Source of the DNA: Bacteroidota bacterium
GTDB lineage: Bacteria; Bacteroidota; Bacteroidia; B-17B0; Aurantibacillaceae
Direction: 5' to 3'
NCBI GenBank assembly: GCA_036845295.1
Contig: DAIUED010000001.1
Coordinates: forward strand, 1 to 53,456
Length of the DNA stretch: 53,456 bases
Of the stretch, positions 35,682-47,559 are shown piece by piece. The stretch's first letter is position 1. Every line of letters starts with the position of its first letter. Made by a program: the position numbers and the translations under genes. Under the pieces are notes generated by a model that did not search any database, was not told the DNA's origin, and saw only the letters and a list, made by a program, of their open reading frames with translations.

Positions 35682-36941
35682 TTATGGTTTTTCTTTTAAT
35701 ATTAATTCCTGTGTATTCATGTAGGCATCGTAACCTGATGTGATGATCCTGTCGCCCGGCTTCAAGCCGCTGAGCACTTCGTAGTAGTCCGGGTTTTGTC
35801 GCCCGAGCTGCACATCGACGCGATAGGCCGCTGTACCATCTTCGTTGAGTTTGAATACCCAGTTACCGCCGGTTTGCTGGTAAAAGCCTCCGCGAGACAG
35901 CAGAAGTGCCTGGCTTTCGTCGCTGAGTGTAAGCCTTATCTGCAAGCTCTGGCCGCGGCGAATGTCTTTTGGTAAGGCACTTTCAAAGGTCATATCAACC
36001 TGGAACTTTCCATTCTTCACCTGCGAATATACTTTATGGATGCGTAAACGGTACTCCTTCCCAGCCAATCCGAACTCGCCCGTGAGACCAGGATAGATCC
36101 GCGCGATGTAATGCTCATCGATCTCGACCCTTACCTTAAAACCGGTGATCACATCGATCTGGCCAAGGCGTTCGCCTTTGTTCTTATTCTGCCCCGGCTC
36201 GGCCGCCAGTGAAGTCAGCTGCCCGTCCACCGGAGCCCTCACCACAAGGTCTTCTACTTTCCGGCGCATGATCTTCAGGGCTTCCTGCGTGCGCTTAAAC
36301 GACTCTTTTGCCTGTGCCAGCTCTTCCTTTCCCGAAAGCGAATCTTGTTTGAGGATTTGTTCGGTGAGTTTCTTTTTCTGAAGCGCGTAGTTGTAATTGT
36401 TTTCGGATTGCCTGAACTCCTGCAATGAAATGGCTTGCGAACCGTATAGTTGTTTGTTAAGGTCGTACACACGCTTCGCTTCGCGGTACAGGTTCTCCAC
36501 ATCGGTACCCTGGTTCAGTTTCATGATGGTATTCTGTGTAGCAGCATTTCCCGAGATCCGCATTTGCGTGAGCAGATTAAAGACAGATGTTTCCTGATTA
36601 GCAAGACTAAGCTCCAGATCGGTATTGGAAAGCCTGAGGATAGGATCACCTTTCTTCATCATAGCCCCGTCTTCAGCGAAAATTTCTTCTACCCGGCCAC
36701 CTTCCACAGCATCGAGGTAAATAGTAGAGATTGGCATTACAATGCCGTTCACAGGAATGTATTCCCGAAAAGCGCCTTTTTTTACTTCGCTGATGGTAAT
36801 ACGCTCGGTATTAACGTTGAGGCGACTTCCACCGCTTGCGTAATAGATGCTACCTCCTATCAGGAAGGCCACAACCAGGATTACACCGATCGTGATCACT
36901 TTTTTTGTCGTCCACTTTTTTTTGGGTATTGCCCTGTCCAT
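35682..36941 (-). CDS. HlyD/MacA-type periplasmic adaptor (membrane fusion) protein
   Basis: It has an N-terminal TM anchor and lipoyl/barrel-sandwich motifs flanking a long coiled-coil hairpin. It is the first gene of the efflux operon. Confidence 0.85.
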   Translation of the reverse strand: MDRAIPKKKWTTKKVITIGVILVVAFLIGGSIYYASGGSRLNVNTERITISEVKKGAFREYIPVNGIVMPISTIYLDAVEGGRVEEIFAEDGAMMKKGDPILRLSNTDLELSLANQETSVFNLLTQMRISGNAATQNTIMKLNQGTDVENLYREAKRVYDLNKQLYGSQAISLQEFRQSENNYNYALQKKKLTEQILKQDSLSGKEELAQAKESFKRTQEALKIMRRKVEDLVVRAPVDGQLTSLAAEPGQNKNKGERLGQIDVITGFKVRVEIDEHYIARIYPGLTGEFGLAGKEYRLRIHKVYSQVKNGKFQVDMTFESALPKDIRRGQSLQIRLTLSDESQALLLSRGGFYQQTGGNWVFKLNEDGTAAYRVDVQLGRQNPDYYEVLSGLKPGDRIITSGYDAYMNTQELILKEKP

Positions 36942-37065
36942 ATCCTATGCTCGTGTTGATGATGTATTCATTCGGGGGGAGATGCAGAACTATGTTGTCT
37001 TCGTTGCTCGTAAAAAAACTATCTGTTTCAGCATCTCTCCCTGATATGAATTGATGCATACCAGA

Positions 37066-37083
37066 ACATAAACTCCGTGCCAA
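37066..37083 (-). promoter_or_regulatory. Weak candidate sigma-54 promoter (-24 TGGCACG perfect, -12 degenerate)
   Basis: The minus strand reads TGGCACGGAGTTTATG about 125 nt upstream of the hlyD-like start, next to a divergent sigma-54 activator gene. The -12 element is TTAT instead of TTGC, so support is poor. Confidence 0.25.
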
Positions 37084-37266
37084 GTCTTTTAACTATTGAT
37101 TATCAATAAATTACAAAAACTAAAAAACTGTCTGCTTGTGCGTTGGTGATACAATAGTGTCCGGTTTCGATACACTTTTAAAATTTCCTTGTTTATGATT
37201 TGTTTGGTGCACAGGCATTTAGCGTTTGGGAATATTTATTGATCTTTGAACAGACAAAACTAGAAT

Positions 37267-38619
37267 ATGGATTTAAAGAAAGCGAGTGTGCTGGTGATCG
37301 ATGACGACCGGGATGTGCTCACGGCGATGGAACTATTGCTGAAAAAAGAAGTGGGCTATATCGCCACCGAAAAAGATCCCGGAAATTTGCCAATGCTCCT
37401 GAAGAAACACAGTTTCGATCTGGTGCTGCTCGATATGAACTTCAATGCGTCGATCAATACAGGCAACGAAGGCATTTACTGGCTAAAGCGTGTTCGTGAT
37501 ATTGATGCCAATCTTATCGTAGTGATGATCACTGCGTATGCCGACATCGACCTGGCCATCCGGTCGCTAAAAGAGGGTGCCGCTGATTTCATCGTGAAAC
37601 CCTGGAACAACCAGGTATTGCTGGATTCGTTGAAAGACCTGTTACAAAAGAAAAGCCGCAGGCAAACCGATGGCTCGCCGGTAAAAGGGCATTACGAGGA
37701 TGCCGGCATGATCGGGCAAAGCGAAGCCATGCAACATGTTTTCAGTAAGATCACCAAAGTGGCTCCAACCGATGCCAATGTACTCATCCTGGGAGAGAAC
37801 GGTACCGGAAAAGACCTGATTGCGCGGGCTATCCATCAACACTCGCTCCGGGCCAAACAAGCCTTCGTAAAAGTGGACGTGGGCGCGCTTACTGAAACCC
37901 TGTTCGAAAGCGAACTCTTTGGCCACAAGAAGGGCGCTTTCACAGATGCCCGCGAAGATCGCGAAGGCCGCTTCGAATCTGCCGACAAGGGCACACTATT
38001 TCTTGATGAGATCGGCAACATTAGTCTGCAGCAACAAGCCAAGCTGCTTACTGTGCTCCAAAACCGGCAAGTGACAAAGTTGGGCAGCAACATACCGGTA
38101 CCTGTAAATATACGCTTGCTGTGTGCTACCAACCAGCCTCTCAGTGGCCTTGCCGACGAAAATCGTTTCCGGAAAGATTTGATTTACCGCATCAATACCG
38201 TCGAGATCATCCTGCCGCCTTTGCGATCGCGAAAAGAAGATATTGCGCCACTCACAGCACACTATTTGAAATTCTACCGCGAGAAATACTTCAAATCATC
38301 GCTCGAGATCAGCCCCAAAGCGCTTGATAAACTCCGCGAGTACCACTACCCAGGTAACATCCGCGAATTGCAATACATTATCGAACGTTCTGTGATCATG
38401 GCCGATGGTGATGTGTTACAGCCACAGGATTTTATCTTCTCGCCCATCGAATCCCGTGCGACTGCTGACCATCATGCGGAGACTAGCCTGAGTGCTGTAG
38501 AAAAACAAACCATCATGCGGGTGATCGAAAAAAATAACGGCAATATTACTAAAGCCGCGAAAGAGCTGGGAATTACACGCACAGCCCTCTACCGCAGACT
38601 CGGAAAATATGAACTATAA
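37267..38619 (+). CDS. Sigma-54-dependent response regulator (NtrC family enhancer-binding protein)
   Basis: It has a REC domain (DDDRDVL...LLDMNF), an AAA+ domain with GENGTGKD, the GAFTDA loop (a GAFTGA variant) and LFLDEIG, and a C-terminal Fis-type HTH (ITKAAKELGITRTALYRRL). Confidence 0.9.
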   Translation: MDLKKASVLVIDDDRDVLTAMELLLKKEVGYIATEKDPGNLPMLLKKHSFDLVLLDMNFNASINTGNEGIYWLKRVRDIDANLIVVMITAYADIDLAIRSLKEGAADFIVKPWNNQVLLDSLKDLLQKKSRRQTDGSPVKGHYEDAGMIGQSEAMQHVFSKITKVAPTDANVLILGENGTGKDLIARAIHQHSLRAKQAFVKVDVGALTETLFESELFGHKKGAFTDAREDREGRFESADKGTLFLDEIGNISLQQQAKLLTVLQNRQVTKLGSNIPVPVNIRLLCATNQPLSGLADENRFRKDLIYRINTVEIILPPLRSRKEDIAPLTAHYLKFYREKYFKSSLEISPKALDKLREYHYPGNIRELQYIIERSVIMADGDVLQPQDFIFSPIESRATADHHAETSLSAVEKQTIMRVIEKNNGNITKAAKELGITRTALYRRLGKYEL

Positions 38620-39955
38620 ACAGATATTCAGGCACCAACTCTTCAAAACCATACTTTTGTTTGCGCTCCTGCTCGCGCTCGCTTTTTGTGTGGTGAAAGA
38701 ATGGTACATGACGGCACTTCCCATCCTTCCGCTCATTGGTTGGCTCCTGTACAACTCGCTCAGGTATCATAACCGGGCAAGCATCGAGATCCGGCAATTT
38801 GTTGATGCTATCCAGCACCGCGATTTCTCAAGGCATTTCAACACCAGGGAGGTATCGCCTGAGATCCTGCCGCTGCGTCTGGGCTTCAACCAGATCATCG
38901 ATACGTTTAAACTTATCAGCAAAGAAAAAGAAACGCAGTTCCTCTACCTCAAAAATATTCTTGATATTGTAGATACCGGCATCCTTTCTTACGAAACATC
39001 GCAGGGTGAAGTACTCTGGATGAACGAAGCCCTCCGCCAGCTATTGCACATTCCTTATCTGAAAACGATCCATTCGCTCGAAAAGCGCAACCAGGGATTA
39101 TATCAGGAGATTGTTTCCCTGGAGCGCGGACAAAAGATCGTAACACGCATCCCAAAAGATAGCAGCTTCTTCAAGATTCAGCTTTCGGCTACCATGTTCG
39201 AAAACGAAGGAAAGACCTATAAGCTCATTGCTTTCCAGAATATCAACGACGCGCTGGATGAAGGCGAATCACAAGCCTGGCAAAAGTTGCTGAGTGTGAT
39301 GACGCACGAGATCATGAATTCGGTGGCTCCTATTGCTTCATTGGCCGAAACGATGAAGAACCGTCTTGCAGAACATAGCCTGCAGGCAGGAAATTACAAG
39401 GAAACCCTTGCTGACATGGAAACCGGCATCGTCACGATTAAAAAACGCTCCGAAGGCTTGCTGAAATTCACCGAAACCTACCGGAGCTTAAGTCGCATCA
39501 ATAAGGTGCATCCTGCGCCGGTATATGCTGCCGAGCTCTTCGAGCATGTGCAGCAACTGTTGCAGCCTGGCATCGACAGCCGCGGCATCGACTTCGAGAT
39601 CATCCTAAAAGATCCGCTCCTGACGGTAAATGCCGACTCTGCACTGATCGAGCAGGTGCTTATTAACCTGACGCTAAATGCGATGGATGCCGTGAAAGAA
39701 CAACCTCACCCGCGGATCAGCCTCAGTGCCTCGAGGCAACCACACAAAACCGTGATTCAGATCAGCGATAACGGTTCGGGCATTGCCCCCGAACTTCTGG
39801 ATAAGATCTTCATTCCGTTCTTCAGCACCAAAAAAAGCGGTAACGGCATTGGCCTGAGCTTATGCAAACAGGTCATGTTGCTGCATAAAGGGCAGATCAC
39901 AGTGAAATCAACTGAACAAGAGGGAACGGTATTTAGCCTCGTTTTCGATCAGTAG
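38609..39955 (+). CDS. Sensor histidine kinase with two closely spaced TM helices and a cytoplasmic PAS-like segment
   Basis: It has the H-box SVMTHEIMNSVAPI, the N-box LINLTLNAMDA, G1 DNGSGI and G2 GNGIGLSL. The TM1-TM2 loop is only about 5 aa. There is an 11-nt overlap with the response regulator gene. Confidence 0.85.
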   Translation: MNYKQIFRHQLFKTILLFALLLALAFCVVKEWYMTALPILPLIGWLLYNSLRYHNRASIEIRQFVDAIQHRDFSRHFNTREVSPEILPLRLGFNQIIDTFKLISKEKETQFLYLKNILDIVDTGILSYETSQGEVLWMNEALRQLLHIPYLKTIHSLEKRNQGLYQEIVSLERGQKIVTRIPKDSSFFKIQLSATMFENEGKTYKLIAFQNINDALDEGESQAWQKLLSVMTHEIMNSVAPIASLAETMKNRLAEHSLQAGNYKETLADMETGIVTIKKRSEGLLKFTETYRSLSRINKVHPAPVYAAELFEHVQQLLQPGIDSRGIDFEIILKDPLLTVNADSALIEQVLINLTLNAMDAVKEQPHPRISLSASRQPHKTVIQISDNGSGIAPELLDKIFIPFFSTKKSGNGIGLSLCKQVMLLHKGQITVKSTEQEGTVFSLVFDQ

Positions 39956-39978
39956 GTACCGGGTGAACTCGTTAGGAA

Positions 39979-40497
39979 TCAGAAGCCAATAGATTCCACC
40001 TCATCGCTTCTAATGCTAAGCAGTCCGATGCAGGATCGCGTAAACGCCTCGATCTTTTGTTCGGCCGTGAGAATCTTCAAATCTCTTTGATCTGACTTGG
40101 TCAGGTATTGCTCTATATGAGGGAGCGTAGTGCTTTCAACATTATAGTTGAGGCGGTGAGCAATTTTGTTCCTCAAAGAATTCAACTCCGTCAGACCCGG
40201 TACAATCATTTCGAAAAAATCGGCAGCTGACGGCAATAGATAAATCTTCTGCCGAAAACCAAGATCAATGGAGGCGTAAGCTCTCTCTGTTAAAGACAGG
40301 TGGCGCCTCAATACGCCATCCATAAGATTTTCTATCACGAGATGGCAAACAATGATCTTTCCAAAATGATCGTGCTTCTGCTCGAGCATCCTGGCATTCT
40401 CTTTGGTTTTTTGTTCCAGCACATCAAATAGCTTCAACATATCAAAAATAGGTTCTACCAACTTAGGTGAACCGGATCTAGGGTTTTTTCGTTTCAT
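39979..40497 (-). CDS. HEPN-like all-alpha protein (putative RNase) with RNKIAH motif
   Basis: The 172-aa protein has an Rx4H motif in LNSLRNKIAHRL near the C-terminal half and helix-favouring composition throughout. An ATGA start/stop overlap joins it to the upstream nucleotidyltransferase gene. Confidence 0.5.
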   Translation of the reverse strand: MKRKNPRSGSPKLVEPIFDMLKLFDVLEQKTKENARMLEQKHDHFGKIIVCHLVIENLMDGVLRRHLSLTERAYASIDLGFRQKIYLLPSAADFFEMIVPGLTELNSLRNKIAHRLNYNVESTTLPHIEQYLTKSDQRDLKILTAEQKIEAFTRSCIGLLSIRSDEVESIGF

Positions 40498-41567
40498 AAT
40501 TTCTGATCTTTATATAAGACGTTCCGAATCTCCACCAAAATCTCCTCGGCCTTTGCGATGTTTGGCTCCACAGGTAAAGACGATGTTTCGTAAAGTGCCT
40601 CGATTTCTGCGATCTTTTCCTGCGCCATTTCTACGAGTACATCGTAATCGAAAGCGCCCGAACGAATCTTCAACAGGAAGTCACGGTCGGAGCGACGCAC
40701 GTTCACGCGGCCCTCGCGCGCAATCTCTGCAGCCATGCCCAATAAGCGAAACGTATGCATCATGTTTTTAGCGTCGTAGTTTTTGCCGTGGTCGATGGTG
40801 TTTTCGTACCGGGCTTCGTTTCGCTTCTCCACCCATTCCCAGTACTCCCGGTAATCGCGGCAATACTTCGAATAACCATCTTTATTGAAACTCATGACAC
40901 CCAGCGGCGCAATGTTTCTTTCCACGGAACTAAGCAATACGTCGTTGGCCTCGCTGCCGGAGCTGATGCCTTTAAGGGAACGATCCAATAACTGGCTGTT
41001 GTGGAAGAGCAGGTACATATCGCGCATGTGTGCGATATGTATCAAGCCACAATCTTGCTGAACAAAACCCTTTCGCTGAAGCCATACCGGCAGTGCCAGC
41101 GAACCCTGGCCCTCGACCACGTAACAGAAGTCGAGGATGGATTTGCGTTCCTGTTCCACCGGGTTAACGATCTTTTTATTGAGTCCTTTCGCCTTTTTTA
41201 TCTGCGATTGGGCATAGCCGGCAAAGGTGTCGCGGCAAAGCCTGGAAAGAAAAAACTCCGGTTTCAAAAGATCCATCACCGGATGCCGGTAGCGCACGCA
41301 GTCTTCGGGACTGCTTAGCAACTCCAGGATGTTCGGGTTGTTTTTAACCAGCAGATCCACAAACCTACCGAGTTCGTAATACACTTCATCATTTGTTGCA
41401 TTATTGAGCTGCTCTGTATAGGAAAGCCCATAGAGCTCCTTTTTCGGAAGCAGGAAAACACCCTTCAAATCGGTGTCCGATTGTGCGGTATGAAGGCCAT
41501 AGGCCCGACTTCCGCTGACACACTCCAGTAACAGATGTTTGCTGCATTTTATATCCTGTAAGTTCAT
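40494..41567 (-). CDS. Pol-beta superfamily nucleotidyltransferase, YcgL/PF10127-like ('RlaP'-type), long paralogue
   Basis: The N-terminal motif is SGSRAYGLHTAQSDTDLKG (GS-x10-DxD). The 357-aa protein starts 1 nt after the stop of the preceding paralogue. Confidence 0.7.
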   Translation of the reverse strand: MNLQDIKCSKHLLLECVSGSRAYGLHTAQSDTDLKGVFLLPKKELYGLSYTEQLNNATNDEVYYELGRFVDLLVKNNPNILELLSSPEDCVRYRHPVMDLLKPEFFLSRLCRDTFAGYAQSQIKKAKGLNKKIVNPVEQERKSILDFCYVVEGQGSLALPVWLQRKGFVQQDCGLIHIAHMRDMYLLFHNSQLLDRSLKGISSGSEANDVLLSSVERNIAPLGVMSFNKDGYSKYCRDYREYWEWVEKRNEARYENTIDHGKNYDAKNMMHTFRLLGMAAEIAREGRVNVRRSDRDFLLKIRSGAFDYDVLVEMAQEKIAEIEALYETSSLPVEPNIAKAEEILVEIRNVLYKDQKL

Positions 41568-41568
41568 G

Positions 41569-42336
41569 TTACTTTTTTATGTATAAAAGTTCTCTGAATA
41601 ATTCGTCGAGGTTCACACGCGGGTCTTTCCGGCCTTTCAACCCGTCGAATGCTTTCGTTGCGTTGTCAAGTTCGACGGAAATGAACGCATTAAGTTCGGC
41701 CTCGGCCGGATGACAGTAGCTTTCGTTCTTTCCGGATTTGAGTTGCACCAGCTCGCGGATACGCCCTTTGAGCGAATGATCGAAATCCAGCTTTCCGACC
41801 ATTGTGTCGAAGACGATAGGCGGCACACTATCTTCTTCCAGTATCCATTTGCAGCAAAGCGTCGCGCGCAAGGCGTAAAACAATTTTTTGAGCTTTACCT
41901 GATCCCTGTGTTCAACCTCCGAGAAGCTGTTCCTTGCCATTCCGAGGTAATGATACATAGAAGCCACGGGTACGAAGCACCGCTGCGCATAAGCATTTAA
42001 GAGTGCCTGCACACCAGGTACCTCACTATAAACAACAGGCGACTGTATCCGTTCCAGTAAGGCACCATTGGACTTCCACATCAGTTTTAAGCTCTTACGA
42101 ATATCCCAACCAGTAATATCAAGCTCTCCATCATCCGACATGTACTCAATACTGTCTTTCTTTTCCGACAGAGATAAGTACCAATCGAGATCGTGCCGGT
42201 AGATCATGCGCACGTCATAGTCGCTGTCGGGCGACGCAAATCCCCAGGCGCGCGAACCTGTTTCACAAGCATACAATACTGTAACTCCATATTGAGTCTC
42301 GATGTCTTTCAGTTTCTGTTGTATCTGTAGGGTCAT
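41569..42336 (-). CDS. Pol-beta superfamily nucleotidyltransferase, YcgL/PF10127-like ('RlaP'-type), short paralogue
   Basis: The N-terminal motif is ETGSRAWGFASPDSDYDVR (GS-x8-DxD). The protein is 255 aa. Confidence 0.7.
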   Translation of the reverse strand: MTLQIQQKLKDIETQYGVTVLYACETGSRAWGFASPDSDYDVRMIYRHDLDWYLSLSEKKDSIEYMSDDGELDITGWDIRKSLKLMWKSNGALLERIQSPVVYSEVPGVQALLNAYAQRCFVPVASMYHYLGMARNSFSEVEHRDQVKLKKLFYALRATLCCKWILEEDSVPPIVFDTMVGKLDFDHSLKGRIRELVQLKSGKNESYCHPAEAELNAFISVELDNATKAFDGLKGRKDPRVNLDELFRELLYIKK

Positions 42337-42378
42337 GATAATTCGATTTTAAATACATTTGTTTACTTTAAAAATTTT

Positions 42379-43806
42379 CTAATCCTCCCGGCTTCCGTCA
42401 TCGGCCATCCGCACCATTTTCGGTGTGAACTTCGCTACTACATCCACCAGGTCCTTTTGTGAAGCCATCACCGCTTCGATGTCTTTATAGGCCATTGGTG
42501 CTTCGTCTAATCCAGCTCCTATCAAGGTGACACCATGATCTTTCAAGACTTTCCGCATCTCATCATTCGTGATGTTTTTTATCGCCTGCGTACGACTCAT
42601 CTGCCGACCTGCACCATGAGAAGCCGAATTGATGGCATCTGCTTCTCCTTTTCCGCGCACCAAAAAACCAGGCGCAGTCATGGAACCCGGGATGATTCCC
42701 ATCACATCTTTGGATGCCGGTGTCGCGCCTTTCCGGTGCACGATTACCTCTTCTCCATTCCAGGTTTCTTTCCAGGCAAAGTTATGGTGGTTCTCCACCT
42801 TAGCCAACACCTGGGCACCTATCGCTTTCGTGATGCGCTCGTGGATCACTTCATGGCAAGCAGATGCATAGTCGCCGGCGAGGTTCATCGCCAGCCAATA
42901 TTCCTGCCCTTCGGCGCTGTTCAGATCAAGGTAAGCGAGGTTGGCTGCCTCTTTCGGAAGCCTGCACTGTTCTTTTGCAACCTTGGTATAATGCCCGGCA
43001 ATGGTGGCACCGAATCCGCGCGAGCCTGAATGAGTAAGCAATGCCAGGTATTTTCCCTTTGAGATATTCAATTTCTCGTCGTCTTTCTCAAAGTCGATGA
43101 TCCCGAATTCAACGAAGTGATTTCCTCCGCCCGAAGAACCAAGCTGTTCCCATGCCTTTTGATGAAGATTCTTCACCAAAGGATTCATTTGGAACAAGGC
43201 ATTGTCCAATATCTCATGTTCTACACGTTGCTTACCATGCCAGCCGGCACCGGCTCCGAATTTGGTCCAGGCGATGAGTTCGCGCTTATACTTCGATTCG
43301 TCAGCCATAAAGTGCGACTCCGGGATATCAAATACGGACAATGCCATCCGACATCCAATATCAACACCCACGCCATACGGAATAATGGCTCCGTGTGTAG
43401 CCAGCACACCGCCTATTGGCAATCCATAACCCTGATGCGCGTCGGGCATCAACGCTCCGGCAGCCGCAACCGGTAACTTCATGGCAACTTCCATCTGATT
43501 AATTGCGCCCTCCTCGATATGATCAGCTCCAAAAACGGTATAAGGCAACGCCTTTTCTCGGAGCGCAATCACTTCCTCTTGCACATCATTCATTTTTTCC
43601 ACCAGCGCCTGAGCGAGATCTGCGAGCACCTCGTCGTCGAGGAAACTTTCGGGGTGTTGAATTACTTTTGTGAAGATGGCCAATAGTTGTTCCTTTTCCG
43701 GCATAGTGGCATATTGCCTGGCAGCAGTAAGCGCAAGGCCGATGGCTTTCCCTTCGGAATAACCGATCGCTTTGAGATCGGCACCATTGATGTTTTGAGT
43801 GTTCAT
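42379..43806 (-). CDS. rtcB: RtcB-family 3'-phosphate/5'-hydroxyl RNA ligase
   Basis: It has the conserved motifs VDIGCRM, GGGNHFVE, HSGSRGFG and SASHGAGR (catalytic His). The 475-aa protein has a ~70-aa N-terminal extension relative to the minimal bacterial RtcB. Confidence 0.9.
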   Translation of the reverse strand: MNTQNINGADLKAIGYSEGKAIGLALTAARQYATMPEKEQLLAIFTKVIQHPESFLDDEVLADLAQALVEKMNDVQEEVIALREKALPYTVFGADHIEEGAINQMEVAMKLPVAAAGALMPDAHQGYGLPIGGVLATHGAIIPYGVGVDIGCRMALSVFDIPESHFMADESKYKRELIAWTKFGAGAGWHGKQRVEHEILDNALFQMNPLVKNLHQKAWEQLGSSGGGNHFVEFGIIDFEKDDEKLNISKGKYLALLTHSGSRGFGATIAGHYTKVAKEQCRLPKEAANLAYLDLNSAEGQEYWLAMNLAGDYASACHEVIHERITKAIGAQVLAKVENHHNFAWKETWNGEEVIVHRKGATPASKDVMGIIPGSMTAPGFLVRGKGEADAINSASHGAGRQMSRTQAIKNITNDEMRKVLKDHGVTLIGAGLDEAPMAYKDIEAVMASQKDLVDVVAKFTPKMVRMADDGSRED

Positions 43807-44055
43807 GTATGTTTGTTTAAATGTAACAATACAAAAGAACCTTACAAGTGCGCAGTGTAGTTGCGCAGTTAAATTAAATCTTAGAAATCAATGTAAATTA
43901 CTGATTTACAGCTGCAAATTTTCAGGCTCGAAAAAGCGGCTCACTAAATAAACAAAGAGACTCACTCAATACAGCATTTGCTATCAACTGAATAATCCTA
44001 GCTTAGCGGTGCGGCGGCAGGCTGCATTTGCTTTCATCCACTAAGATCCTAATTC

Positions 44056-47000
44056 ATGAAAACAAAACTCTGTACTCTTTTCTTAAGTCTCGCTTCGTTT
44101 TTTTCTTTTTCGCAAGCACCATCATGTGGCGATGATATTATCCGCGATTTCCAGAAACGTCATCACCGGAATTTCGACCGTGATATCCGACTCCAGGACG
44201 AGCGCATCCGGTATTACATGCAGCAACAGCCGTCGGGTGCAACTGGAAGACCATCCACTTCCACAAGCTACACCATTCCGGTTGTGTTCCATGTAGTTCA
44301 CAATGGCGAAGCATACGGCTCAGGCTCTAACATTTCTTACCAGCAGATCTTGTCTCAACTCAATGCCATGAACGCGGCTTTTTCTAAAAACTACCCGGCA
44401 TACAATAACCAAACGCATCCGGCATACGCGCAAAATACGGGCATTCAGTTTTGCCTGGCGTCTATTGCGATGCCTTCTTCCGTATCGTTTTACAACGGAC
44501 CTGGAGGTGTGGAGAAAGGCGTGATGCGTTACGCCAATACCTCCTTGAGTCATCACCAGATGGGCAACACCGACGCCACGGCGATGGTCGCGCTCACGCA
44601 TCCTACCGGCAACCATTTCCCTTTTGACAAATACCTCAACGTGTGGGTAGTGTCTTCTATTGGCGGAAGTAGTTCGGGTATTGTGATGGGATATGCGCCG
44701 AGGCCGTTGATGGGCGCTTACCCACTGGATGGCGTGGTAATGCGGTCTGACGTGGTCGGGGATAATTCTACCGGAAATACTTTCGCTCTCGGGTACGGCC
44801 TTGCACAAGGCAAAGTGATGGTGCATGAGCTTGGCCATTACTTTAACCTCATGCACATTTTCGAAGGTGGTTGCGCCGGGGCTAATGCCGCCGGCTCTGC
44901 AAGCGACCCCTGCGATCTTAACGGCGATATGATCTGTGATATCGAACCCTGCACCACACAGAACATCGCCTGCAATGCCCCTGTGCCCAATACCTGTTCG
45001 GCAAGCTATCCCACAGGCACAACCAGCAATGACATGATTGAGGACTACATGAGCTACGCCGACGACGACTGTATGAATACATTTACCCAGGACCAAACCT
45101 CTCGCATGCATGCCACCTTAAATGTGTTGAGGCAAGGCCTATGGCAAACATCTAATCTTGCTGCTACCGGGGTTATCGGAGCGGGTGGCTGTTCCAACTC
45201 TACACTCTATCTGGATATCGTAAAACCAAGCATTAACTACTGCATCAATACGCCTCTTGTGTTCTCGAACCCTACTGTAGGAAATACAGCAAACTCCTGG
45301 CAATGGACACTCACCGGCGGCACACCCGCCAGCGCCACTACCAGCAGCGTGAGCGTTACATACACCGCACCTGGCCTCTACTATGCCAAATTGAAGGTAA
45401 GCGACGGCACATTATCCCGTACCGACAGCGTACCGGTAGCGGTAACGAGCTGCACACTCGACCCGAAGAAACTCAACCGAAGCAACTGGCTTTTTGGTGA
45501 CTCCTGTTCGATTGCCTTTACCACAGGAAATCCGGTAGTGAATGATCTGGTGCTCCGCAAAAAAACGCAACGTGCGTTCGAAGTGGCTGTTTCCATGAGC
45601 GATTCGCTCGGCAACCTGCTGTTTTATTCAGATGGTGTGAATCTTTGGGACAATAACCACGTGCAGGTAAACACAACGCCTCTGTTTGGCTGGAATGTAT
45701 CAACCGGAAGCTGGGATTATAACGGCTCTTCGGTATATGGTTTCACGGCTTTCGAGGTTCCGAAACAGCCAGGTAAATATGCGCTAATCTGCATTCCACC
45801 TCAGGAAACCAATGGCGGTGCCATGAACGCCTACTGTAAAATCTCTTCCGTTATATACGACGTCAATACCCATACCGTTAGTGCCTTTCAAAGCCTTACC
45901 CATCCTTCTATCTACACACCCGGCAGCAACCGTTTTTCAGAAGATCTCTGCGTGGTACCACACTGCAATGGCGTTGATTATTGGGTGCTTGCCCGCGGTT
46001 GGACAAGCAATTTCATGAACGGAAACATTTATGCTTTTCTCTTCAACCAAAACGGTCTAAATCCGACTGCTGCACCTGTAATATCCGGGCCGTTCCAGAG
46101 TCCGACAGGCGTGGGTGGCATCAAATCGAATCCTGCCGGCAACAAGATCATTTGCGGATCGGGTATCGGACGCTTCTTATTGTACGACTTCCATGCGGCA
46201 ACAGGCGTGCTAAGTAACCAGGTAATGCCACCCGTGAGCGCAGCCACTAACTCTATTTGCCTTACCTGTGCGTTCAGTCCTAACGGCCAATACCTGTACC
46301 TCAAGTACGGCACTTCCGGGGCAGGGAGTTTTATTGAGCAAGTGGATGTAAATACGCTTAGCGTCGTAAAAACGCTCAGCAACCCCAACCCGAATACCGA
46401 ACCGCATTCTTTTGGATACATGGAGATAGGGCCGGACAACAACATCTACTATAATGCTATTAATTCCTATTATCTCGGTAAGATTGCCAATCCCGACTCG
46501 CCCACGCTTTCGGCGATAGCAGCTCCGGTATCGTTTGTACCGACATACAGCATGTGCAGCACCAACCTCTCGCTTCTTAATTTTATGGAAGCCGACAAAC
46601 CTGCTGAAGTACCTGCCCTGATGGTGCAAAACAACACGTGCAGCAGCTACTCCTTTGCTGTGAACCCCTGCTGGAGCGTTTACAGTGCCAGCTGGAATTT
46701 TGGCGATGGCAGTTCTATCGTTACTGGCGCGGGAGTTTCTCATACCTACAGCGTTACCGGCGTTTATACGGTAAGTCTTACCCTGAGCTACAACGGGCAA
46801 AGCATACCAGTATTTACACGAACAGTAAGCGTGAACTCGCCAACAGCTTCCATCAGTGGTCCCAGCGCCATCTGCAAAGGAAACACGTATGTCAACAATT
46901 ACAGCACGACCAACATTGCCGGCGCCACCTATAGCTGGACGGCATCGAATGCAACAATCTCCGGTCCGGGTACGATCCCTTCCATCAATCTTGTATCTGG

Positions 47001-47559
47001 AAATACCGGCGTGGCTACCTTATCGTTACAGGTGACAAATGGCGGTTGCATTGCCAGGGCAGTGAAAACGATCGCCATTGATACCATTCCTACGGTTTCC
47101 CTGAGCGCTTCTACTGTGGCCTGCACCGGGAGCACGGTGAACCTAAGTGGCACACCTGCAGGCGGTGCTTATACAGGTGTTAACGTCGGCTCTGGTGTTC
47201 TCACGCCAACCACCACCGGCATCCATCAGGCATATTACACGTACACGAACGGAAACGGTTGTTCCAACACAGCCTCGGTATCCATAAACGTGAATGCGTG
47301 TACAGGCCTTCAAGATGTAGGTTCTCCCGCAGTATTTACCGTTTATCCGAACCCAAGCGATGGCATGGTTTACCTGAACGGAAATGTGTCGATACGTTCC
47401 GTTGAGATCTTCAATGCCATCGGGCAACTGATCTGGCAACAAAACGGAGCAGGGGCGGAGACGATGGCTATCGATCTAAGCCAGGCAAGCAAAGGCTTCT
47501 ATACACTGCGGGTTCACACCGGCGGCGGCATTTATCATCAACGCATCCTGAAGGAGTAG
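44056..47559 (+). CDS. Secreted M43-type metzincin (cytophagalysin/pappalysin-like) with PKD domains and T9SS C-terminal sorting domain
   Basis: It has a signal peptide, the zinc site HELGHYFNLMH, at least two PKD-like modules (WQWTLTGGTP...YYAKLKVSDG and WNFGDGSS...YTVSLTL), and a C-terminal ~75 aa of the VYPNPS...FYTLRV type typical of a T9SS CTD. Confidence 0.8.
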   Translation: MKTKLCTLFLSLASFFSFSQAPSCGDDIIRDFQKRHHRNFDRDIRLQDERIRYYMQQQPSGATGRPSTSTSYTIPVVFHVVHNGEAYGSGSNISYQQILSQLNAMNAAFSKNYPAYNNQTHPAYAQNTGIQFCLASIAMPSSVSFYNGPGGVEKGVMRYANTSLSHHQMGNTDATAMVALTHPTGNHFPFDKYLNVWVVSSIGGSSSGIVMGYAPRPLMGAYPLDGVVMRSDVVGDNSTGNTFALGYGLAQGKVMVHELGHYFNLMHIFEGGCAGANAAGSASDPCDLNGDMICDIEPCTTQNIACNAPVPNTCSASYPTGTTSNDMIEDYMSYADDDCMNTFTQDQTSRMHATLNVLRQGLWQTSNLAATGVIGAGGCSNSTLYLDIVKPSINYCINTPLVFSNPTVGNTANSWQWTLTGGTPASATTSSVSVTYTAPGLYYAKLKVSDGTLSRTDSVPVAVTSCTLDPKKLNRSNWLFGDSCSIAFTTGNPVVNDLVLRKKTQRAFEVAVSMSDSLGNLLFYSDGVNLWDNNHVQVNTTPLFGWNVSTGSWDYNGSSVYGFTAFEVPKQPGKYALICIPPQETNGGAMNAYCKISSVIYDVNTHTVSAFQSLTHPSIYTPGSNRFSEDLCVVPHCNGVDYWVLARGWTSNFMNGNIYAFLFNQNGLNPTAAPVISGPFQSPTGVGGIKSNPAGNKIICGSGIGRFLLYDFHAATGVLSNQVMPPVSAATNSICLTCAFSPNGQYLYLKYGTSGAGSFIEQVDVNTLSVVKTLSNPNPNTEPHSFGYMEIGPDNNIYYNAINSYYLGKIANPDSPTLSAIAAPVSFVPTYSMCSTNLSLLNFMEADKPAEVPALMVQNNTCSSYSFAVNPCWSVYSASWNFGDGSSIVTGAGVSHTYSVTGVYTVSLTLSYNGQSIPVFTRTVSVNSPTASISGPSAICKGNTYVNNYSTTNIAGATYSWTASNATISGPGTIPSINLVSGNTGVATLSLQVTNGGCIARAVKTIAIDTIPTVSLSASTVACTGSTVNLSGTPAGGAYTGVNVGSGVLTPTTTGIHQAYYTYTNGNGCSNTASVSINVNACTGLQDVGSPAVFTVYPNPSDGMVYLNGNVSIRSVEIFNAIGQLIWQQNGAGAETMAIDLSQASKGFYTLRVHTGGGIYHQRILKE

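Follow-up and report, generated by a model that had tools for sequence, protein, structure and literature searches.

Would a bacterium place an RNase on the same transcript as the enzymes that mend RNA breaks, and what would it gain by doing so? The question is raised by four adjacent genes in a 53,456-nucleotide (nt) stretch of an uncultured Bacteroidota genome (Aurantibacillaceae; contig DAIUED010000001.1, assembly GCA_036845295.1), the whole of which is called the window below. The genes encode the RNA ligase RtcB, two nucleotidyltransferases (NTases) of the RlaP family and a predicted RNase with a HEPN domain. HEPN RNases are metal-independent and leave 2′,3′-cyclic phosphate and 5′-OH ends, and RtcB seals such ends. 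An original prediction, made from the DNA sequence of this locus, built on that chemistry, which we accept as sound established knowledge. The locus is an RtcB–RlaP RNA-repair operon of a described class, in the form with one short and one long RlaP that is typical of Bacteroidota. Its last gene encodes a protein that we assign to a family related to the Salmonella tRNA nuclease HepS. We give an even chance to the reading that this gene adds a latent RNase whose cuts the operon itself can reverse or buffer.

An RtcB–RlaP operon with a HEPN gene as its last cistron

The operon consists of the following parts, in order of transcription.

42379..43806, minus strand: rtcB, 475 aa, first gene of the operon (PF01139 and catalytic motifs)
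42337..42378, minus strand: 42-nt spacer between rtcB and rlaP, the position at which relatives hold a zf_Tbcl gene
41569..42336, minus strand: short RlaP (PF10127), a DNA polymerase beta (Pol-beta) nucleotidyltransferase, 255 aa (PF10127 over its full length)
40494..41567, minus strand: long RlaP paralogue, 357 aa (PF10127 in the N-terminal part)
39979..40497, minus strand: HEPN-domain RNase candidate, 172 aa, last gene (family profile and conserved motif)

The list of open reading frames (ORFs) and the sequence itself give distances of 42 nt, 1 nt and a 4-nt ATGA overlap between long rlaP and the HEPN gene, exactly as first claimed. Downstream, the HEPN gene meets a convergent histidine kinase gene whose stop codon lies 23 nt off (39956–39978). 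Upstream, 249 nt of intergenic DNA separate rtcB from a divergent gene for an M43 peptidase. Because the spacing is tight and the flanking genes are convergent and divergent, the four minus-strand genes almost certainly form a single transcription unit. Between the HEPN and kinase genes (39956–39978) no terminator-like hairpin was detected, and with only 23 nt between the stops the two transcripts may therefore overlap as antisense.

RtcB matches the Pfam model PF01139 with 281.6 bits against a cut-off of 27 (E = 1.8e-83; residues 107–465, model positions 4–423 of 426). Its translation contains all four motifs quoted in the original prediction, VDIGCRM, GGGNHF, HSGSRG and SASHGAGR, which we take to be the conserved metal-binding and His-GMP catalytic motifs. 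Full-length homologues with 55–84% identity are found across Bacteroidota. The product is a 3′-phosphate/5′-OH RNA ligase for 2′,3′-cyclic phosphate or 3′-phosphate ends together with 5′-OH ends. It scores below threshold against the NCBIfam equivalog model PRK09588 (189 bits, cut-off 407), and no gene for RtcA, RtcR or a kinase was found in the operon in the ORF list or among the Pfam matches of the window. The Pfam RtcB domain is preceded by about 100 additional residues at the N-terminus (residues 1–106, 43489–43806); this extension is kept at full length in Bacteroidota homologues, where tblastn matches span residues 1–475.

Both middle genes carry the Pol-beta signature GS-x8/10-DxD attributed to them, as GS-x8-DSD in the short protein and GS-x10-DTD in the long one. 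The short RlaP matches PF10127 almost end to end (259.6 bits, E = 4.4e-77, model positions 2–248 of 249), and the long RlaP matches it over residues 11–126 only (84.5 bits against a cut-off of 23, E = 1.3e-23). Among 17 homologues of each, G27, S28, D37, D39 and D73 of the short protein are invariant, and G19, S20, D31, D33, D60 and E65 of the long one are conserved in at least 15. The C-terminal module of the long protein is strongly conserved and contains the block Y264-D265-x-K267-N-M-M-H271-x-x-R274. A sequence search of the PDB returned no match to either protein.

In Pfam, PF10127 has been renamed RlaP, for ‘RNA repair pathway DNA polymerase beta family’, a name that goes back to a comparative-genomics survey reported to have placed these NTases in operons with RNA ligases. 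The original prediction was right that the family adjoins RtcB. The short and long pair lies beside rtcB here and in 15 other Bacteroidota loci, all without HEPN, and in these the long RlaP is always the partner of a short one. Two Pseudomonas RlaPs were recently found to add one or two nucleoside monophosphates (NMP) to RNA 3′-OH ends, with a preference for damaged RNA (2025 preprint, PMC12776372). By analogy, the RlaPs of the window are predicted to be enzymes that add NMP to RNA 3′ ends. The same preprint points out that the 3′-OH products of RlaP are incompatible with RtcB, and proposes to ‘add two NMP, then cleave off the terminal nucleotide’ so as to yield a 3′-phosphate (PMC12776372).

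A HepS-related family of HEPN proteins

The last gene is the part of the operon that departs from the described class. Its 172-aa translation contains RNKIAH, with R109 and H114 at the two catalytic positions of the Rx4H motif. A word-indexed homologue search returned only the protein itself. An exhaustive HMMER search of 1.84 billion representatives recovered 189 relatives (clusters) at E≤1e-3, of which only three cluster representatives, the query's own among them, reached E≤1e-30. A 60-sequence family alignment shows no variation at E56, R109 and H114 and at least 90% conservation at H52, N106 and N110, which gives the signature LNxxRNKxAH. The N-terminus of the ORF, MKRKN, lines up with those of its homologues, so that the start codon and the 4-nt overlap are credible. 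The possibility of a spurious or degenerate gene was rejected on the family-wide conservation and the aligned N-terminus.

The family profile matches HepS (PDB 9oij) at E = 3.9e-11 and the HEPN domains of Csm6 at 0.005–0.007. In a pairwise alignment RNKIAH falls on RNKYAH of HepS, which sets R109/H114 on HepS R100-H105. HepS is a stand-alone tetrameric tRNA anticodon nuclease from the Salmonella Gifsy-1 prophage (STM14_3211) that is activated by a siphovirus tail-tip protein; the H105A substitution abolishes its catalysis, and no gene partners are conserved among its homologues (PMC13043305). HepS shows no toxicity even on over-expression. Weak matches to HEPN_Cthe2314 and Cas_Csm6_HEPN were seen in 5 and 3 of the 60 family members, respectively. 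An AlphaFold2 model built from the family alignment is all-helical, with a predicted local distance difference test (pLDDT) score of 90.3, compared with 39.6 from the single sequence. Neither the Pfam search nor the comparison of family members with HEPN models places the family with the HepT/DUF86 type.

Sequence profile and motif conservation thus form the main basis on which we assign the 172-aa protein to the HEPN proteins, in an uncatalogued family related to HepS; the expectation of a helical, HEPN-like last gene product with an Rx4H motif is borne out to this extent. The protein has no NCBIfam match and no homologue in phage genomes. Four further family members (P0005, P0008, P0030 and P0040) have no PADLOC 2.0 match at E≤0.01, and a fifth, P0007, has a weak Csm6 HEPN match (E = 0.0032). 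The HEPN protein of the window is 23–38 residues shorter at its C-terminus (39979–40060) than its two closest homologues, which measure 195 and 210 aa. In HepS the terminal strands have a part in trigger sensing, so regulation may differ in the window, where the tail is missing.

Family members more distant from the window occur in other company. One is solitary among housekeeping genes and one is carried by a small Acinetobacter plasmid. Two lie downstream of a gene for an AriA/AbiL/OLD-like ATP-binding cassette (ABC) ATPase, and two have an overlapping second HEPN gene after them. These surroundings have the appearance of an uncatalogued defence module (L088 3–1832, L089 1256–2537, L091 3623–7286), made up of the ATPase (AAA_15/AAA_21), the HEPN family protein and a second HEPN protein of about 225 aa with weak Apea/RiboL-PSP matches. 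In L091 the module adjoins genes for a single-stranded DNA-binding protein (SSB) and a D12 methylase and a gene resembling a restriction endonuclease. PADLOC has no model for the HEPN proteins of this type of module.

Linkage of HEPN and rtcB in one syntenic clade

Co-conservation of the HEPN gene with rtcB was addressed through its closest homologues and through a sample anchored on rtcB. The sample comprised 80 Bacteroidota genome loci, with 55–74% RtcB identity, and four closer metagenomic relatives, L092–L095, with 80–84%, which were found through four protein-identity look-ups. The closest HEPN homologues (47% and 40% identity) lie in two further loci, L004 and L005. Both are syntenic with the window, sharing the M43 peptidase, the histidine kinase, a sigma-54 response regulator and MacAB-like genes. 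The gene orders of these loci and of the syntenic L092 are as follows.

L004: RtcB – zf_Tbcl – RlaP – RlaP – HEPN
L005: RtcB – zf_Tbcl – HEPN, no RlaP genes
L092: RtcB – zf_Tbcl – RlaP – RlaP, flanks of the window type, no HEPN

Wherever the HEPN gene follows rtcB it closes the operon, at gaps of −4, 11 and 10 nt in the window, L004 and L005, respectively. Such gaps leave no room for a promoter and so tie expression of the HEPN gene to the repair operon. The inner genes turn over around the retained terminal gene, zf_Tbcl being present or absent and the RlaP pair likewise. Pairwise identities make the window the outgroup to L004, L005 and L092, and the linkage of HEPN and the RlaP pair with rtcB is therefore taken to be ancestral in the clade. 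From this follow later losses of the HEPN gene in L092 and of the RlaPs in L005. A remnant HEPN gene in L092 was considered and rejected: neither a six-frame hidden Markov model (HMM) search nor tblastn detected one in the 215-nt gap.

The HEPN gene is also the most divergent gene of the block, with 37–48% identity compared with 70–93% for RtcB, the RlaPs, the kinase, the regulator and the peptidase. Between L004 and L005, for instance, RtcB is 90% identical and HEPN only 44%, with the HEPN catalytic residues intact. To judge from these identities, the pattern fits diversifying selection on a conflict gene, or replacement of its alleles, and not a housekeeping processing enzyme. The HEPN gene is facultative, added as the last, tightly coupled gene in one narrow uncultured lineage of Bacteroidota.

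Among the four syntenic loci, zf_Tbcl is missing only in the window. This treble-clef zinc-finger gene (PF13451; 181–190 aa) stands directly after rtcB at L004 5432–5998, L005 7418–7990 and L092 8531–9076, and neither the window nor any of the 80 genome loci has it. It diverges fast, with 55–60% identity between L005 and the other two.

Readings of the HEPN gene

The reading that we prefer, with about as much chance of being right as wrong, is that a latent, trigger-activated HEPN RNase was joined to a repair operon and that its cleavage is reversed or buffered by RtcB, with the RlaPs restoring 3′ nucleotides. By analogy with HepS, the HEPN protein would be held latent until a trigger switched it on. 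Once fired, it would cut tRNA or another RNA of translation without a metal, leaving 2′,3′-cyclic phosphate and 5′-OH ends. The RlaPs, whose substrate would be RNA and not the HEPN protein, would first replace nucleotides lost from frayed 3′ ends, and the co-transcribed RtcB would seal the ends made by the nuclease. The operon would in this way pair self-inflicted, growth-arresting RNA cleavage with its reversal, or else buffer a leaky activity. More tentatively, HEPN and RtcB may, together with the RlaPs, make up a cycle encoded on one transcript that is complete in itself and in which RNA is cut and rejoined, serving either as a reversible switch of immunity or dormancy or as the missing step between RlaP and RtcB; we find this conceivable and rather doubtful.

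Several observations weigh against the preferred reading. The four genes had been proposed as one cassette, and a survey of gene-order recurrence does not bear out its co-conservation. The exact order was found nowhere else, and besides the window HEPN follows rtcB only in L004 and L005. No member of the HEPN family lies within 8 kb of rtcB at the 80 genome loci, and the three metagenomic loci L093–L095 have none. The gene is absent as well from L092, the syntenic relative nearest by RtcB identity (84%), where it was cleanly lost; the operon therefore functions without it. All three HEPN–rtcB loci share flanks, so the linkage goes back to a single acquisition followed by vertical inheritance, which leaves n = 1 for functional coupling. 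The linkage with rtcB is one evolutionary event in three uncultured genomes, with the gene lost in a sister genome, and no sampled family member outside the syntenic clade is near RtcB. The fold assignment meets difficulties of its own. No Pfam HEPN model scores above threshold (the best, HEPN_Swt1, reaches 12.7 bits against a cut-off of 27.5, E = 0.16), and none of the four window proteins is matched by PADLOC 2.0 at E≤1. Foldseek ranks HepS first in the PDB, if weakly (probability 0.95, E = 0.07, template modelling (TM) score 0.37, about 19% identity), places the HEPN toxin 7ae8 fifth (E = 2.4) and finds nothing significant in the PDB or among viral structures. In the HMM and structure checks proposed with the original prediction, the profile homology to HepS and the all-helical model speak for HEPN, no Pfam HEPN model passes its threshold, and the Foldseek support for the fold is weak.

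The gene might instead be an autonomous defence or abortive-infection gene of the HepS type that landed at the 3′ end of the operon and was inherited there, with no interplay with RtcB or the RlaPs. We hold this to be possible, at clearly less than an even chance. It agrees with the solitary action of HepS and the partnerless state of its homologues (PMC13043305), with family members elsewhere being solitary or in defence islands, with the absence of the gene from 84 other rtcB loci, one of them syntenic, with the single acquisition event and with a rate of evolution typical of stand-alone defence genes. It agrees less well with the gaps of −4, 10 and 11 nt, which leave the gene no room for a promoter of its own and bind its expression to repair, or with the terminal position kept while zf_Tbcl and the RlaP pair came and went. 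Moreover, the match between HEPN products and RtcB substrates makes at least a passive interplay likely. Another proposal is that HEPN is an end-processing nuclease that trims damaged or RlaP-extended 3′ ends to a 2′,3′-cyclic phosphate that RtcB could ligate. The cleavage of a terminal nucleotide after addition of two NMP, as put forward for RlaP (PMC12776372), would be such a step; the operon has no RtcA cyclase or kinase, and translation of the window's HEPN gene is coupled to that of the long RlaP. Yet 15 RtcB–RlaP–RlaP loci do without this HEPN family, so it is no general solution, and L005 has HEPN and no RlaPs. The low identity of HEPN (37–48%, against 75–93% for its partners) would also be unexpected of a housekeeping enzyme, and the relatives of the family are defence-type nucleases. 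We regard this proposal as unlikely.

For the two NTases the original prediction had offered a choice, either to remodel RNA ends before ligation or to control HEPN in the manner of an MNT antitoxin. Of these, the former fits the activity of RlaP on 3′-OH ends (PMC12776372). The latter would make the locus akin to a type VII toxin–antitoxin (TA) system, in which one or both large NTases neutralize the HEPN toxin by nucleotidylylation, as MntA does with HepT. To be sure, the NTase genes stand immediately upstream of the HEPN gene, with the 4-nt overlap, and both keep their catalytic residues. However, the two proteins reach 13.4 and 13.8 bits with the MntA model, far from its cut-off of 60, and both are bona fide members of a family whose demonstrated substrate is RNA (PMC12776372). 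The HEPN family falls outside the HepT/DUF86 type, the NTase pair occurs in 15 loci without HEPN, and an antitoxin role is disfavoured because L005 keeps HEPN without any RlaP gene. We consider a TA-like arrangement very improbable.

Relation to known systems

The clearest and classic case of cutting and resealing with these end chemistries is the pairing of IRE1, a KEN/HEPN nuclease, with RtcB in the splicing of metazoan XBP1 mRNA; RNase L is listed alongside it. As predicted here, a HEPN-type nuclease cuts to 2′,3′-cyclic phosphate and 5′-OH ends and RtcB reseals them. Unlike the window, that system is eukaryotic, its genes are unlinked, its nuclease belongs to the large multidomain kinase-RNases and the outcome is programmed splicing rather than conflict. 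Dedicated ligase repair of damage done by conflict RNases is known in bacteria from the PrrC anticodon nuclease and T4 Pnkp/Rnl1, from RtcB2-PrfH and colicin E3 (PMC9223846, PMC9304027) and from the response of Salmonella rtcBA to prophage anticodon nucleases (PMC7790460, PMC9879122). In all three, nuclease and repair come from opposing parties or separate loci, whereas in the window they share one transcript.

Among RtcB–RlaP systems (Burroughs and Aravind 2016, NAR 44:8525) the window is ordinary in uniting RtcB and PF10127/RlaP NTases in one operon, around whose core variable accessory genes accrete. It differs in lacking Band_7/SPFH, the WYL regulator and Ro60/TROVE, which are common partners in Bacteroidota, as well as RtcA and RtcR, and in carrying a HEPN RNase gene. 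The 2016 abstract of Burroughs and Aravind reportedly sets out a ‘syntax’ of ligase, NTase, end-modifying enzyme and scaffold, of which a nuclease is not part. The original prediction knew of no characterized four-gene system of this composition. This holds for the HEPN addition and not for the rest, since the RtcB–RlaP core is a described system; only the addition is new. In the available literature we found no description of a HepS-related HEPN gene as the terminal cistron of an RtcB–RlaP operon.

The E. coli-type Rtc system (RtcR-RtcA-RtcB, driven by sigma-54) is a more distant comparison, as the operon has no RtcA or RtcR gene and no sigma-54 promoter upstream of rtcB, and its RtcB falls below the PRK09588 cut-off. 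With HepS the window protein shares small size, a stand-alone HEPN domain, the profile match, the RN-x3-H arrangement on catalytic R100/H105 and first place in the Foldseek ranking. It differs in the low identity and TM score given above and in setting: HepS is prophage-borne and partnerless, whereas the window gene is chromosomal and the last cistron of an rtcB operon. The likeness to HepT–MntA lies in a Pol-beta NTase gene directly upstream of a HEPN RNase gene. MntA, though, measures about 100–140 aa and the window NTases 255 and 357 aa; the latter belong to the RlaP family and are predicted to act on RNA, and HEPN and NTases of the window type occur independently in related genomes.

Upstream element, flanking genes and other RtcB loci

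A candidate for the control region of the operon lies in the intergenic region upstream of rtcB.

43848..43868, minus strand: conserved element CTGCGCAACTACACTGCGCAC, in which 7 nt separate two TGCGCA hexamers; it lies about 45 nt before the rtcB start

This 21-nt element is unique within the window. In the aligned upstream regions both hexamers recur in L004 and, but for a single substitution in the first, in L005. Of 78 Bacteroidota loci, 15 have a similar motif upstream of rtcB, where about 2 would be expected. The element is a candidate operator or promoter of the operon, possibly an operator for a regulator of rtcB in Bacteroidota. No sigma-54 promoter (TGGCAC-N5-TTGC) was found upstream of rtcB, and matches across the window are at chance (61 against 61.6). 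Scans for sigma-70 promoters and terminators gave nothing informative, the scan being one that does not cover Bacteroidota promoters. Rfam and ARAGORN searches over the window revealed no Y RNA, tRNA-like RNA or other RNA family.

The flanks (35682–39955 and 44056–47559) keep the same gene order around the operon in all four related loci. They contain a MacAB-type efflux system (membrane fusion protein, ABC and FtsX components) and a two-component system, in which a histidine kinase is paired with a sigma-54-dependent response regulator. The M43 metallopeptidase, 1167 aa long, carries PKD domains as well as a sorting tail for the type IX secretion system. The sigma-54 activator beside the operon is transcribed towards it and has no CARF domain among its Pfam matches. 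The two-component system probably regulates the divergent efflux operon rather than rtcB.

Across the wider sample, the typical Bacteroidota arrangement is a WYL regulator and Band_7 – RlaP – RlaP – RtcB, and the short and long RlaP pair adjoins rtcB in 12 of the 80 genome loci. A census of 123 same-strand neighbouring ORFs at 84 loci put Band_7/SPFH first (22 ORFs), with no HEPN family among the 25 most frequent. The three remaining metagenomic relatives are arranged as follows.

L093: RtcB beside an RtcB2-PrfH module
L094 (7001–11480): RtcB – RlaP – RlaP – HipA_2 – DUF3037, with the kinase and DUF3037 at the tail
L095: WYL / Ro60 / RtcB – RlaP – RlaP

L093 (1–15422) resembles an RNA-repair and defence island, with Ro60/TROVE, RtcB, a second RtcB with PrfH (RF-1 domain), an M41 peptidase and then an OLD-family ABC-ATPase/TOPRIM nuclease. 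Elsewhere, a TatD nuclease and a 1450-aa nSTAND3 NTPase are inserted between the RtcB–RlaP–RlaP genes (L046 8001–17042), a PolyVal-type kinase lies within the operon (L025 2068–6301) and a 922-aa PHP-domain protein is found in L020 (7989–15483). The RtcB–RlaP–RlaP operon seems to be a hot-spot for additions of the conflict type. Burroughs and Aravind reportedly describe accretion of this kind around RtcB cores.

Significance

RtcB–RlaP repair operons are thought to counter RNases of other parties, such as phages, plasmids and competitors. A conflict-type HEPN RNase on the ligase transcript makes the window a compact case for self-inflicted RNA cleavage with programmed reversal. If the preferred reading is true, what would be classed as ‘abortive infection’ becomes a reversible arrest. 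In the more tentative form of a self-contained switch, a HepS-like nuclease would halt translation and its own ligase would reset it, a bacterial counterpart of IRE1–RtcB. Should the cycle be the missing step instead, the nuclease would regenerate a 3′-phosphate or cyclic end after RlaP extension and so answer the open RlaP–RtcB problem; the HEPN gene is one candidate for the step that turns the 3′-OH product of RlaP into a substrate for RtcB. The HepS-related HEPN family defined here, with about 189 clusters, lies outside the coverage of Pfam and PADLOC.

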